Below, in pieces: positions 36,729-40,750 of a stretch of 64,000 nucleotides of DNA (the first letter of the stretch is position 1; each line of letters opens with the position of its first letter). The DNA comes from a virus (lineage: Duplodnaviria; Caudoviricetes). Where the stretch lies: IMG/VR virus record IMGVR_UViG_3300043077_000092, one strand, 5' to 3'. The notes below the pieces were generated by a model. That model was not told the DNA's origin, did not search any database, and was given only the letters and a program-made list of their open reading frames with translations. The position numbers and the translations under genes were made by a program.

Positions 36729-36836
36729 TTCTTATTACCTCCTTAAAATTTGATTCTGTATGCTTTTAACTTATTTTAGGACGAGATGGAAACGGTTTTC
36801 CATCTCGCCTATGTATTCTTTTAATATAGGTCTGAA

Positions 36837-38084
36837 TTACTTCCCAGCATTCTTCTTATCCATAAAACGCTTGAGTAAATCTTCCTTTGAAGCATCCCCA
36901 TCCTTTGATGCATTGACGGCTGATGTCTCGTCGGCAAAACTCTGCTTTGCTGTAACTGATTTAAGCTTTGAGCTTTCCTCAATCTTGCTAAGCTTTGAAG
37001 TTGCTGCCTTTCTTGATAAGATGCTTTCTTCCAACTTCTTGCTTCTGTTGATGATGCGGTCAATAACCATTGCAGGTTCGGTTAAGCCCGATAATACAAC
37101 AGCGATTTTTCCCTCATCCTCATCGGAGAAGTTTGTAACATCCTTGATATGCTCGCCAAATGTTTTCTGCAAATCATTCTTGATGGCACTCTTAACCGAA
37201 TCGAATTCCTCACCGAGTGAGTACATCAATGCTGATGCTAAGATTTCCTTATCAGAAACCAGTTCTGCATGAGCAGACTCTGTATCGATATGGTTCTTTA
37301 AGGTTTTAATCACAGAACCATCTTCAATGTCTGCCATCTCAAGACCTTCCATAGAATCGATAACGATTCTGCCTGCAACCGATAATACTGTAAGCATATC
37401 ACGCTGGTCGATACCACCTGTTCTTGTCTCGCTAATGAAATCGCCCTGAAGAACTCTCAGGTCATTTACAAACGATTCGTTTACTTTTGCCGCTGCCTTG
37501 TTTGGCGACATCTTGTCAGCAAAACGATTGTTATCGTAGATCATATAGGTCGGGTTCAATGCTCCGATTTCCTTAAGCCAAGACTTTGTACCCTCGAACG
37601 CTGCCGAACCTTCGTCAGAGAAGGGTAACACACCTGCAACGATGAAAACCTTATTCTCGTACATAGACTGGAGTAACTCCAACAACTCTGTTGAAGAACC
37701 TGATCCATAACCGCCGCCAGTACTGGTGGCAATAACGATAACGTCATTGTTCTCGATAACTTTGATAAACTTGTTATCAAGTACGATTCCGGAATCTGCA
37801 AGGAAGAACTGCTTTGCACGATCTCTGTCCTTTCCTGTACCTTTCCCATCACCTACTACAATTTTTACTACTTTCGGGCAAGTGATCAGATCCAAATCTT
37901 TCTGGGAACCATTGATAGCTACACTATCTAACCCCAACTCTTCAGATGCTGATGATGCCAACATGGAACCGCAATTACCTGTTCCGATAACCGCAAGTCT
38001 TAACAACTTCTCCTGCTCAACAGGAGTACTTGCTACTACTGTTGGTACAGTTGTTGTACCTGTTGTTGTTTCCTTTTCACTCAT
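36837..38084 (-). CDS. Tubulin/FtsZ-family GTPase (PhuZ/TubZ-like)
   Basis: VIGTGNCG (T1), INGSQKDL, GKGTGKDR (T3), STGGGYGSG (T4), LPFSDEG, YDNN, IDQRDM (T7); start MSEKET (38084). Confidence 0.9.
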   Translation of the reverse strand: MSEKETTTGTTTVPTVVASTPVEQEKLLRLAVIGTGNCGSMLASSASEELGLDSVAINGSQKDLDLITCPKVVKIVVGDGKGTGKDRDRAKQFFLADSGIVLDNKFIKVIENNDVIVIATSTGGGYGSGSSTELLELLQSMYENKVFIVAGVLPFSDEGSAAFEGTKSWLKEIGALNPTYMIYDNNRFADKMSPNKAAAKVNESFVNDLRVLQGDFISETRTGGIDQRDMLTVLSVAGRIVIDSMEGLEMADIEDGSVIKTLKNHIDTESAHAELVSDKEILASALMYSLGEEFDSVKSAIKNDLQKTFGEHIKDVTNFSDEDEGKIAVVLSGLTEPAMVIDRIINRSKKLEESILSRKAATSKLSKIEESSKLKSVTAKQSFADETSAVNASKDGDASKEDLLKRFMDKKNAGK

Positions 38085-38138
38085 GATAAATTTACCTCCA
38101 TAATATGTATGTTTCTTGGTATGTCTAAAGACCAAGAG

Positions 38139-38212
38139 TCCTATTAATCGGATTCGAACCGATTTTCACAGCACTTAATTTGATGTGAATACTCCATTTA
38201 GATTTTAATAGG
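38139..38212 (-). ncRNA. tRNA-like element (pseudo-tRNA/tRNA mimic) in the tubulin gene leader
   Basis: 7-bp acceptor CCTATTA/TAATAGG + A discriminator; perfect T-arm ATCGG-TTCGAAT-CCGAT; GG in D-loop; aberrant anticodon arm TTCACA-13nt-TGTGAA; no encoded CCA. Confidence 0.7.
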
Positions 38213-38392
38213 CTATATGAAATTGATTACTCCATATAATCGAGAGGCAACCCTTATTGCTAAGAATTACCTCCCATTATAAGTGTACGGGTGATGAACC
38301 CCGTGATGTATACCCATTGTCGCCGTACATAAGAAACATACAGAATTTGGAGTTCGTTTGTTTAACTCATCACGGTTATTTCATCATCAGTT

Positions 38393-38399
38393 TAATATA
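38393..38399 (-). promoter_or_regulatory. Putative early promoter TATATTA, ~310 nt upstream of tubulin start
   Basis: TATATTAAAC. Confidence 0.6.
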
Positions 38400-38474
38400 T
38401 AACTAAAACAAAAGTTGATAGAGTATGGTAACTGATTTTTCTGGTATTACTCAGTCACCATACTCTAAATCCAT

Positions 38475-38675
38475 TTATTCTTCCGTTGTATATCCAACCA
38501 TAGTTGGTCCAACCATAGCCCCCGGAATGGACTCAATACCTGCAACTTCCATTGTTGCTGCAAGACCCGGAAGTGTTCCGCTAGTAGCTACTCCAGCGTT
38601 TGTATACATATTCTGGTTATCATTTGGTACGTTGTTTCCACTACATCCGTAGTGGTTGTCAAATGCATTACTCAT
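38475..38675 (-). CDS. Small hypothetical protein
   Basis: Start MSNAFD behind AAGGAGG, overlapping the upstream stop. Confidence 0.5.
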   Translation of the reverse strand: MSNAFDNHYGCSGNNVPNDNQNMYTNAGVATSGTLPGLAATMEVAGIESIPGAMVGPTMVGYTTEE

Positions 38676-39240
38676 CGATAGATCCTCCTTCATCATTTTG
38701 ATTATCTGCTTGTTCACTCATACGTTTATTAAACTCCCGCATGATATTTTCTGAAGCATCTTTCATAAATGAATTGCTGTCACCTGATGTAACAAATGGA
38801 ACCTGACCCGGTTTTGCCAATTGCTTATTGAGTAAAGCAACGCCTTCTGATTTCTTCTCGGCATTTTTCTTATCAATAGCTTTCTTAGCCTCTGTATCAT
38901 ACACGATAAATGCATTTACAACAGGTATTCCATAATGTTCAGCACTAATGGTTGCGCCGATGTTATCAATGATACCATGCCAATTTAATGAGACCTTAAG
39001 CATCTGGTCAATATAGACCGTTGCCGTTATGTCTCCATTAGCGATACGTCTGATATTGTAAGCCTCCCCCATTTTATTGTCAGAATCCACAACCAATTGT
39101 TCTTTTGGATTATGGAGATACTGATATATGATAGGAATCGATTTGTTTCTTTTACAAGCACGCAGAAGAGCAGTCAATACATCCTTATTCATAGTCTTTT
39201 GTTGTTTAGCCGATCTTATGACGACATTATCTACAATCAT
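38668..39240 (-). CDS. Hypothetical protein
   Basis: ATGA overlap with upstream gene. Confidence 0.6.
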   Translation of the reverse strand: MIVDNVVIRSAKQQKTMNKDVLTALLRACKRNKSIPIIYQYLHNPKEQLVVDSDNKMGEAYNIRRIANGDITATVYIDQMLKVSLNWHGIIDNIGATISAEHYGIPVVNAFIVYDTEAKKAIDKKNAEKKSEGVALLNKQLAKPGQVPFVTSGDSNSFMKDASENIMREFNKRMSEQADNQNDEGGSIDE

Positions 39241-39986
39241 TTCTTTTCTTCTCCCTTCTTGATGGTAGAGATTAAGAGATTGCTTGGAGTTATCAAGTCC
39301 GTTCCAAGACCAGCAGTCATATAGTAAGTATCAATGGTTTCAAGAGCAAGTCTATCTTCAATACCTGCCTGAGATTCAATATCCTCTAATGAACATGAAC
39401 CTGTCTTGGCAATTTGAGCATAAGCATAATTCTTACGCTGTAAACCATCTGCTCTAAAACCATTAAGTTCTCTCAATATGTTAGTTGCACCAATAACTGT
39501 GAGGGCTATATTCTCCTGATCAGACGAACGACCATTCTTATCGTGACCAACTACCTGACCAGTAGTAGCAGAACGCTCATCAATATGAGTTGACGTACTG
39601 TTCTTTTTGGTGTTGGTCTGCTCCATTCTCTTATCTATATAGTAACCAGTGATACATTTTTCCTTTGTCACCATTGGATTTTCCTGAGATTTTGATACGT
39701 GAGGTAATACAACATATTCTTCCAGTGGTATACCAAGAACCTTTGCCGCTTTCTCGATTTGCTCAATTTTAAGCTCACGTTCGAATTCTTTAATCTCCAA
39801 GGTGAAATCAATGTTTTCATCATCAAACATGCATTTCATAAAATTCTCAAACTTTGCATCTGACATGGTACCGAAAAGTTTTTTATATCTATTCGTATTA
39901 GTACCACTAGGGTCTAATGCATCCATTACAGAATATACCAATTGTTCCGCCTTTGCACGTTTTGACATGTCTATTTTGTAGTGCAT
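39237..39986 (-). CDS. Small RNA polymerase subunit matching the extreme beta C-terminus (probably virion RNAP)
   Basis: TGYYIDKRMEQTNTKKNS...RSATTGQVVG..KNGRSSDQENIAL..IGATNILREL..FRAD parallels RpoB GYMY..KL.H...KIHARS...TQQP..G...GQRFGEME..AL...GA...L.E.LT..SD. Confidence 0.75.
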   Translation of the reverse strand: MHYKIDMSKRAKAEQLVYSVMDALDPSGTNTNRYKKLFGTMSDAKFENFMKCMFDDENIDFTLEIKEFERELKIEQIEKAAKVLGIPLEEYVVLPHVSKSQENPMVTKEKCITGYYIDKRMEQTNTKKNSTSTHIDERSATTGQVVGHDKNGRSSDQENIALTVIGATNILRELNGFRADGLQRKNYAYAQIAKTGSCSLEDIESQAGIEDRLALETIDTYYMTAGLGTDLITPSNLLISTIKKGEEKK

Positions 39987-40416: not shown

Positions 40417-40750
40417 GTATTGCCAGTTGGTTTAGCGTGGAGCCTTTTTCTACTTTCCCGTGAAGGACAATTGCATATTTACGTTTTCCTCCATTTGCAA
40501 CTGCATTTGAAATACAGTTCTTATCTTCTTTGGTGAGCTCTGTCAACTCACAATCAAAGATGAAAATGGATGCGTTCTTGTAATCATAAAATATATCAAG
40601 AACATCTGCATCCGGAAAGACCAACTCTAAGTCTTTCATGATTTTCCTGTGCTCTGCACTGGTGGTGTTTTGAAATACCATAACTAACCCGAGCTTATCG
40701 CTCGTAATGGTGATTCCGTTACCATCATTTCTGATAATCTTTAGCTTCAT
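40337..40750 (-). CDS. Hypothetical protein
   Basis: AAGGAG RBS; TATATTA at 40781-40787. Confidence 0.6.
   Translation of the reverse strand: MKLKIIRNDGNGITITSDKLGLVMVFQNTTSAEHRKIMKDLELVFPDADVLDIFYDYKNASIFIFDCELTELTKEDKNCISNAVANGGKRKYAIVLHGKVEKGSTLNQLAIRETKHGIYISKQFTTLLTMSQGNLTD

Follow-up and report, generated by a model that had tools for sequence, protein, structure and literature searches.

In cells infected by jumbo phages, tubulin-like proteins act as organisers, and to our knowledge the control of their dose and timing has not been described. The tubulin gene described here lies behind a leader of about 300 nt that holds a tRNA-like element, which raises the question of what this leader is and how it might set tubulin synthesis. 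The locus belongs to a 220-kb IMG/VR virus genome (G000) that is estimated to be 93% complete, of which a stretch of 64,000 nt (the window) was analysed. The product of the gene matches PF00091 (43.7 bits; E = 4.8e-11), and we found at least 120 homologues, more than 50 of them at 58% tubulin identity or above and many on contigs longer than 200 kb (200 to 265 kb). A 249-aa protein encoded at 39237-39986 of the window matches the phage RNA polymerase beta-subunit family phrog_3233 (E = 1.3e-36), which supports a split multisubunit polymerase and fits a phiKZ/AR9-like jumbo phage with multisubunit polymerases of its own. Neither a CCA-adding enzyme nor RNase III is encoded by the phage genome, and the locus has no DNA similarity to GenBank phages. 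The features of the locus, in window coordinates and in the direction of transcription, are as follows.

38420-38466, minus strand: terminator-like hairpin ending the upstream small gene, with a T-rich tail at 38419-38403
38392-38399, minus strand: promoter element TATATTAA, of phage early type, present in all 14 leaders compared
38385, minus strand: predicted transcription start, the G of an invariant GAT 6 nt past the promoter 8-mer
38380-38386, minus strand: pseudoknot strand A1 (UGAUGAA), pairing with 38298-38292 (A1'); inverted repeat I4
38368-38375, minus strand: pseudoknot strand A2 (CCGUGAUG), pairing with 38308-38301 (A2')
38331-38352, minus strand: anti-SD CUCC (38352-38349) and 5' strand of the closing helix P1 (UUCUGUAUGUUUCUU)
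38285-38328, minus strand: helix B, GUACGG (38328-38323) with CCGUAC (38290-38285)
38242-38275, minus strand: long hairpin P3, with a GCAA loop in the window
38213-38239, minus strand: hairpin P4, found in the window only and not conserved
38139-38212, minus strand: tRNA-like element of 74 nt, with a 7-bp acceptor stem, a 5-bp T stem and GG in the D region
38114-38137, minus strand: hairpin P6 (TCTTGGT/ACCAAGA), starting 1 to 2 nt past the discriminator
38096-38117, minus strand: 3' strand of P1 (AAGAAACAUACA...) and the SD (GGAGG, 38100-38096)
36837-38084, minus strand: tubulin/FtsZ-family GTPase gene (415 aa, ATG at 38084)

A conserved leader RNA in front of the tubulin gene

We compared the upstream DNA of 18 tubulin homologues with the window. 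Homologous leaders of 300 to 340 nt precede the tubulin gene in 13 of the 18. These 13 are jumbo-phage contigs with a tubulin 58 to 90% identical, and together with the window they make up the set of 14 sequences used below. The order of elements from 5' to 3' is the same in all of them. It begins with TATATTAW, 6 nt, GAT, A1, A2, the anti-SD and CUGUAUG, continues with the 5' strand of helix B carrying a near-invariant GCGACA, then A2', A1' and the 3' strand of helix B, and ends with P3, a variable and mostly purine-rich stretch, the tRNA-like element, P6, CAUACA, GGAGG and the ATG. All the elements that the first-pass annotation had described in the window lie where it had placed them, and the tRNA mimic that it had seen inside a long tubulin leader has homologues throughout the set.

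The same annotation had proposed RNAfold and covariation in related phages as a check, and both favour a structured RNA. The leader (a 321-nt stretch) folds at -90.7 kcal/mol, against -63.2 ± 4.6 kcal/mol for shuffled sequences (z = -6.0), and compensatory changes across the 14 leaders back the acceptor and T stems, helix B and the pseudoknot. Since the G-U pairs would read as A-C on the opposite strand, the RNA is assigned to the tubulin strand. With a plain MAFFT alignment as input, RNAalifold found helix B and the T stem only, indels having misaligned the other helices, which were therefore tested sequence by sequence with RNAduplex or RNAfold. An Rfam scan of the leader and six relatives returned no family, only chance-level matches (e.g., to microRNAs and to a plastid hairpin at the upstream terminator). 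In front of the tubulin gene there is thus a leader RNA of some 300 nt, conserved and acting in cis, for which Rfam has no family. A phage early-type promoter serves it together with the tubulin gene, and its fold has the look of a new RNA control device.

The terminator-like hairpin upstream of the leader is an inverted repeat (I2) with 17-nt arms that are 94% complementary; the terminator scan passed over it because its loop is too long for the scan. Hairpin and T-rich tail (38466-38403) close the upstream small gene, which makes the leader a separate transcription unit. Early promoters of phage AR9, used by the virion RNA polymerase, read AAATATATATTAT-(6N)-G+1 (PMC5312081), and TATATTAW-(6N)-GAT is found in all 14 leaders, GAT being the invariant columns G8 A9 T10. 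By analogy with AR9, transcription probably starts at the G at 38385, a position that the first-pass annotation had not given, and this would make a leader of 301 nt (38385-38085) with its 5' end within pseudoknot helix A1. TATATTA occurs 119 times in the genome, and 47 of these sites fall within the ~11% that lies outside crude gene calls (~3.5-fold enrichment). TATATTAA is therefore a likely early-promoter core genome-wide, and its sites often follow a T-rich terminator tail. The other TATATTAA promoters that we inspected by eye lie ~20 to 25 nt from the SD, so that the 300-nt tubulin leader is exceptional. No terminator was found by the scan within the leader, including the part between the tRNA-like element and the gene. 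Two further promoter candidates were rejected: an AR9-type late promoter (AACA-N6-TA/G) at the P1 3' strand is a loose fit in the window and is not matched by the relatives, and a sigma-70-like match at 38127-38100 is at chance level only.

More distant relatives (L011, L012, L015, L013, L026 and L027) have long leaders of a different type. In L026 (601-1003), the SD is closed by an anti-SD ~230 nt upstream (unpaired probability, 0.0) and there is no mimic; L011 (1233-1512) has a T-arm-like hairpin and an anti-SD-like segment that pairs with a duplicate SD-like word, not with the real SD. L025, a 57% tubulin relative, has neither leader nor promoter (751-1003), and its gene starts 58 nt after a small upstream gene. 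The small gene upstream of the leader in the window (38475-38717) encodes a protein whose size, homologues included, is 49 to 80 aa. It has no family match in the window or among its homologues; its C-terminal ...MEVAGIESIP... is kept in the window, L002 and L008, with a variant in the L010, L011 and L013 lineages. A search of IMG/VR with an 18-nt conserved word of the leader returned only L002 and three chance matches, a looser gapped pattern gave more than 100 chance matches and was uninformative, and a metagenome scan with a tubulin profile found only distant lineages, none of them with this leader.

Closing helix, pseudoknot domain and tRNA-like element

The two ends of the leader pair with each other. 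The segments 38352-38331 and 38117-38096, which had been described as complementary at 19 of 22 positions, were recovered independently as a 22-nt inverted repeat (I1; 86% complementary), and RNAduplex gives -22.0 kcal/mol for the window (z = -6.4 versus shuffles). The duplex forms in all 14 leaders, with a summed energy of -299 against -120 ± 10 (z = -18), and in every one the anti-SD CUCC (CCUU in L008) is paired to GGAG or AAGG. CUGUAUG of the 5' strand is invariant, as is GGAGG on the other side, where CAUAC is kept in 14 of 14 and CAUACA in 13. Where the spacer is longer (L023 and L010), there are matching insertions on both sides of P1, and the spacer helices covary. The proposal that the leader closes over its own SD thus holds across the family. 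In the nested-structure ensemble used to compute accessibility, the mean unpaired probability of GGAGG, taken as a median over the leaders, is 0.145 in the full leader and 0.71 once everything 5' of the end of the mimic is removed; accessibility is low in 11 of the 14, and L017, L009 and L020 leave the SD mostly open in this nested-fold model. Among 361 RBS regions of the genome, the best partner of the anti-RBS segment is its own RBS.

The first ~30 nt of the leader form a pseudoknot with the loop of helix B, a feature that was absent from the first-pass annotation. Helix B, which RNAalifold found blind, is paired in 100% of cells, and three of its six pairs show compensatory changes (GUAUGG/CCAUAC and GCACGG/CCGUGC); it encloses the near-invariant GCGACA, A2' (38308-38301) and A1' (38298-38292). 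By per-sequence RNAduplex, A1 and A2 pair with the loop of helix B in all 14 leaders (summed energy, -278 against -137 ± 11 kcal/mol; z = -13). A1 is paired in 84% of cells and has compensatory changes at three of seven pairs, values that come from an imperfect alignment; substitutions include TAACAA/TTGTTA in L024 and ATATCAG/CTGATAT in L010. A2 covaries as GTGGTG/CACCAC, GCGGTGGT/ACCACCGC, CCAGTGA/TCACTGG, ATGGTA/TACCAT and CCATGG/CCATGG. The junctions of the domain carry the near-invariant sequences GCGACA and CACCC.

The hairpins on either side of the mimic are conserved in position and not in sequence. A hairpin of 10 to 20 bp stands at the P3 position in all 14 leaders (z = -3.2 to -7.2), its sequences being unrelated. 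P6 is found 0 to 3 nt after the discriminator in 14 of 14, again with differing sequences (z = -3.1 to -8.2); it was considered as a terminator and rejected, there being no U tract behind the hairpin. In the window, both had been noticed before, as the GCAA hairpin (38275-38242) and the TCTTGGT/ACCAAGA hairpin. At the position of P4, most relatives have a purine-rich single strand.

The 74-nt element at 38212-38139 is, as had been claimed, a tRNA mimic with a perfect 7-bp acceptor stem and an intact T arm (T loop UUCGAAU) and with a noncanonical "anticodon" arm, here a 6-bp stem with a 13-nt loop; its discriminator is A, and CCA is not encoded. It is the single match of the Rfam tRNA family RF00005 in the 220-kb genome (25.9 bits; E = 3.5e-4; model positions 1 to 71), below the gathering score of 29 bits. 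Among the relatives, L021 (36.9 bits) and L023 (29.2 bits) are above this threshold and L017 (23.1 bits) is below it, while L008, L009 and L010 gave no match at E ≤ 1. That L021 and L023 pass the Rfam threshold indicates that the element descends from a real tRNA gene, now decayed. As the first-pass annotation had expected, ARAGORN called no tRNA in the window; the complete genome record, scanned with a relaxed threshold as well, gave none either, nor did the 18 loci. A descriptor combining the T arm with a 7-bp acceptor stem hits the genome only at 38212-38139.

Throughout the family, the element keeps the 7-bp acceptor stem, the 5-bp T stem, a T loop of the form U-(U/G)-C-R-A (position 55 is G rather than U in L008 and L009) and G18 G19. 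Across the aligned sequences, pairing holds in 98.5% of the cells of the acceptor and T stems, and compensatory changes occur at 7 of the 11 pairs, against at most one compensatory pair in a control with slid partners. The 7+5-bp stack is unchanged in length in 12 of 12 aligned sequences, whereas P3 and P6 vary freely. The discriminator is A in 12 of the 14, and none encodes CCA. U8 has been lost, with A at position 8 in most cases; most sequences also lack a regular D stem; and in place of the canonical 7-nt anticodon loop with U33, all 14 have a loop of 9 to 16 nt. The part of the mimic that is best conserved in sequence is the "anticodon" arm itself, whose CACA/UGUG core and loop UAA are invariant in 14 of 14; the register of the UAA varies among leaders, which rules out an anticodon.

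A covariance model built from 12 of the sequences recovers the held-out L020 (42.3 bits) and L010 (27.7 bits). It finds one strong copy per genome, always before tubulin, in the four genomes scanned (three at least 97% complete and the window's own at 93%) and has no match in lineages with other leaders. Five jumbo-phage records (G000 and G001 to G004; 210 to 244 kb) have no tRNA gene by Rfam at E ≤ 1, the whole-genome ARAGORN run having covered G000 among them. The mimic in the tubulin leader is the sole tRNA-like sequence across the five. AUGGAGUA occurs three times in the window, in the SD region, in the P4 stretch (38224-38238) and in the D loop of the mimic (38186-38200). The D-loop copy (UGGAGU) is a perfect anti-SD partner over 6 to 7 nt in the window, L016 and L002 and is not present in the other relatives, which hints at an alternative pairing in which mimic and SD compete for the anti-SD.

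Proposed tRNA-type processing and its alternatives

The reading that we prefer, with a probability of about 0.4, is that host RNase P and/or RNase Z cleaves at the mimic and splits off the anti-RBS half of the leader, thereby delaying or dosing tubulin. The primary transcript would be translationally closed. Host tRNA-maturation enzymes would recognise the mimic by the features that it retains (T loop, GG elbow and 12-bp acceptor/T stack), with RNase P cutting on its 5' side and/or RNase Z just past the discriminator, so that the anti-RBS half of the leader would be separated from the mRNA half, which would have the protective hairpin P6 at its start. The RBS would open once the anti-RBS half had decayed or been displaced, and tubulin synthesis would be delayed or dosed after early transcription, as with the t-elements of plant mitochondria. 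In the cox1 leader, a 74-nt t-element directs an RNase Z cut at its 3' side that makes the 5' end of the mRNA (PMC1920247).

Several observations argue for such processing. The mimic keeps just the features that these enzymes read, including a 12-bp stack without length change, and has lost those needed for decoding; the first-pass annotation had pointed to the acceptor stem and T arm as the parts that RNase P and RNase Z recognise. In lacking CCA and mostly having discriminator A, the mimic resembles the RNase Z substrates that come from CCA-less tRNA genes. P6 would cap the new mRNA 5' end, most relatives have a purine-rich single strand 5' of the mimic, and the SD opens in the model once the 5' half is removed. 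The anti-RBS segment finds its best genome-wide match in its own RBS; the RF00005 scores of L021, L023, the window and L017 point to tRNA ancestry; and the leader is exceptional in length beside the other promoters inspected. Other observations count against it. The closing helix of ~20 bp (about -20 kcal/mol) would still join the halves after a cut, so that excision of the mimic alone would not free the RBS; degradation or displacement of the anti-SD half would be needed as well. The acceptor stem is preceded by a base other than the preferred U, and P6 lies directly against the RNase Z site. The best-conserved sequence in the mimic is the arm that these enzymes ignore, a pattern that a pure processing signal leaves unexplained. 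Of the related tubulin genes, L026 sequesters its SD by a different leader without a mimic and L025 has no leader at all, and 3 of the 14 leaders leave the SD mostly open in the nested-fold model. The invariant sequences of the closing helix and of the "anticodon" arm suggest further partners, perhaps a protein or the CAUACA-GGAGG sites of three neighbouring genes described below. The additional proposal that the mimic is a decoy for tRNA-targeting defences found no support: it is present in one copy per genome and embedded in an mRNA, and its loop is not tRNA-like, on which ground a decoy for anticodon nucleases was rejected.

A serious rival, though one that we consider unlikely, is that the mimic is never cut and stays in the mRNA as an L-shaped enhancer or docking module, helping the ribosome (as a standby site) or a tRNA-binding protein near a partly closed RBS, in the manner of the yjdF riboswitch and of grafted tRNA leaders. 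In a purified system, tRNA leaders ahead of an SD increase translation 2- to 6.3-fold without being cleaved, an effect that needs the GG of the elbow (PMC9142559); GG and T loop are conserved here, and the invariant CACA/UGUG arm with its loop UAA would suit a sequence-specific binder. Against this, the distance from mimic to SD varies (about 35 to 65 nt), Rfam gives no yjdF match, and bacterial transcripts with a tRNA-shaped acceptor/T stack are as a rule RNase P substrates. The emphasis could instead lie on the 5' pseudoknot domain, as a riboswitch-like sensor that sets the closing helix upon binding of a small molecule or of a protein from phage or host, tubulin itself being a candidate. 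Near-invariant unpaired junction nucleotides beside covarying helices, joined to an SD-sequestering platform, are usual marks of translational riboswitches, and L026 closes by the same logic with no mimic. We nevertheless regard a sensor as doubtful: the leaders have no conserved, mutually exclusive alternative pairing, the gene context offers no clue to a ligand, no Rfam family matches, and the role of the mimic is left unexplained.

The closing helix might alternatively be the target itself. Host RNase III would cut the helix (19 of 22 bp) and leave the SD on a short open leader; the helix has about two turns and is made of distant segments that flank a structured core, as in RNase III sites of rRNA and phages. 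This is quite improbable: mismatches and bulges interrupt the helix at places that vary from one relative to another, RNase III is not encoded by the phage, and mimic and pseudoknot go unexplained. In a further alternative, a cut at the 5' side of the mimic would release an RNA of ~170 nt that acts in trans as an anti-RBS small RNA, its invariant CUCC...UUCUGUAUG pairing with CAUACA-GGAGG sites of neighbours. CAUACA(G)-spacer-GGAGG, to which this segment is complementary, also stands at the RBSs of three neighbouring genes (starts at 40750, 36728 and 35348), and these RBSs are within the best 9 of 361 RBS regions for the anti-RBS segment. Counting tubulin, four genes thus have this context in the window (~40771, ~38111, ~36761 and ~35370), and the orthologous genes of L002, a 77% relative, have it as well (311, 2950, 4274 and 5581). 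Before the SD of the gene downstream of tubulin, ATACAG(A/G)A is found at 8 of 12 related loci, with close variants at two more. Several targets would also explain why the P1 strands are invariant rather than covarying. Genome-wide, however, good targets of the segment number 52, not significantly above the 33 ± 16 for shuffled queries; CATACA is not enriched (60 and 69 on the two strands against ~74 expected); a protein site, or the initial transcribed sequence of early promoters, would account for the motif just as well; and no covariation attests RNA-RNA pairing. A small RNA acting in this way therefore seems very unlikely to us. The shared context could reflect a regulon or a shared protein site, and either a protein site or several partners of one strand could account for the invariant P1 strands.

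A second conserved leader occupies the gap after tubulin (36729-36840 of the window, minus strand, with matching gaps in L016 to L024). Its parts are a separate TATATTA promoter (in 9 of the 10 leader-family loci checked, L019 being the exception), (G)ATACATAG, a covarying hairpin, ATACAG(A/G)A or a close variant and an SD, and it precedes a conserved 370- to 400-aa protein without known function.

A composite of these readings can be imagined, a new class of riboregulator in which RNase P/Z cleavage of one early transcript would yield three RNAs: a stable, pseudoknotted anti-RBS small RNA that also governs the CAUACA-GGAGG genes, a free tRNA-like RNA and an active tubulin mRNA, or in which the pseudoknot would instead be an aptamer for a ligand such as a guanine nucleotide. 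Taken jointly, the two versions are rather unlikely; an aptamer of the guanine-nucleotide type, if real, would couple cytoskeleton synthesis to the state of the cell.

Known systems and meaning of the leader

Processing by tRNA-type cleavage, our preferred reading, has its closest parallel in the t-elements of plant mitochondria (e.g., in the cox1 5' leader), noncanonical cloverleafs of ~74 nt in mRNA leaders that keep the acceptor stem and the GGTTCRANYCC T arm, have lost decoding and have been proposed or shown to direct the RNase Z/RNase P cuts that make mRNA ends (PMC1920247). The tubulin leader likewise has a noncanonical cloverleaf with a conserved T arm in an mRNA precursor and no terminator before the gene. 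It differs in that the mimic lies within a larger conserved fold with a pseudoknot and an anti-SD helix, in a phage of bacteria, that its "anticodon" arm is conserved in sequence and that its processing is putative. The yjdF riboswitch and tRNA leaders share a tRNA-derived fold with a D-loop/T-loop elbow upstream of the SD, and in yjdF the off state sequesters the SD and controls translation; there, the T loop itself pairs with the SD (PMC9142559), whereas in the tubulin leader a separate upstream anti-SD (CUCC) does so. The tubulin leader is also three times larger and has no ligand assigned, and the yjdF family model has no match in the window (E ≤ 10) or in six relatives (E ≤ 1).

Other known RNAs share single parts of the design. 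The mascRNA at the MALAT1 3' end is a tRNA-like module that serves as a built-in cutting signal and fixes the end of the neighbouring RNA (PMC8457004). RNase P-processed phage regulatory RNAs, such as C4 of phages P1 and P7 and CI of P4, use a module of this type too. In all of these it sets the ends of noncoding RNAs, whereas the module described here lies between the anti-RBS and the RBS of a protein gene. The leaders of lambda N and of T7 0.3/early mRNA are activated by RNase III; in them, an early gene has its RBS blocked by a long-range helix until an endonuclease cuts, but they have no tRNA mimic or pseudoknot, and for the tubulin leader RNase III cutting is a rival reading only. The 3' tRNA-like structures of TYMV and TMV are likewise viral tRNA mimics tied to translation together with pseudoknots, which form an upstream domain; they are 3' terminal, aminoacylatable and eukaryotic, whereas the tubulin-leader mimic is internal, in a 5' leader and without CCA. 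The element is not a canonical tRNA (25.9 bits against 29; loop, U8 and ARAGORN fail) while having the stems, T loop and G18 G19 of one, and the anti-SD:SD pairing, conserved across homologues, makes the leader an SD-sequestering one in the generic sense. Three further classes were rejected. A bacterial Y RNA (YrlA) has neither an Rfam match nor a TROVE (Ro) domain in the genome to go with it, ARAGORN finds no tmRNA and the mimic is contiguous, not built from two ends, and a type III partition centromere (tubC-like) is matched by only one 15-nt two-copy repeat with no direct-repeat arrays; compensatory and G-U changes, moreover, point to selection at the RNA level, against a centromere.

SD-sequestering leaders and tRNA-like processing or enhancer modules are already known. 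New are the combination of parts, the pseudoknot domain and the phage-tubulin context, and a full-text literature search found no description of a tubulin-leader RNA or of a tRNA-like phage leader of this kind. The result is an RNA family supported by covariation, of riboswitch-like complexity, dedicated to a tubulin gene and with parts that can be mutated. As a compact natural module of tRNA mimic and anti-SD clamp, it lends itself to the study of RNase P and RNase Z on mRNAs and may help to build processing-dependent expression switches. In the leader, organellar t-elements and the tRNA-derived yjdF switch would have a counterpart from bacterial viruses, and a phage lineage that lost its tRNA genes would have kept one as a structural or processing device.
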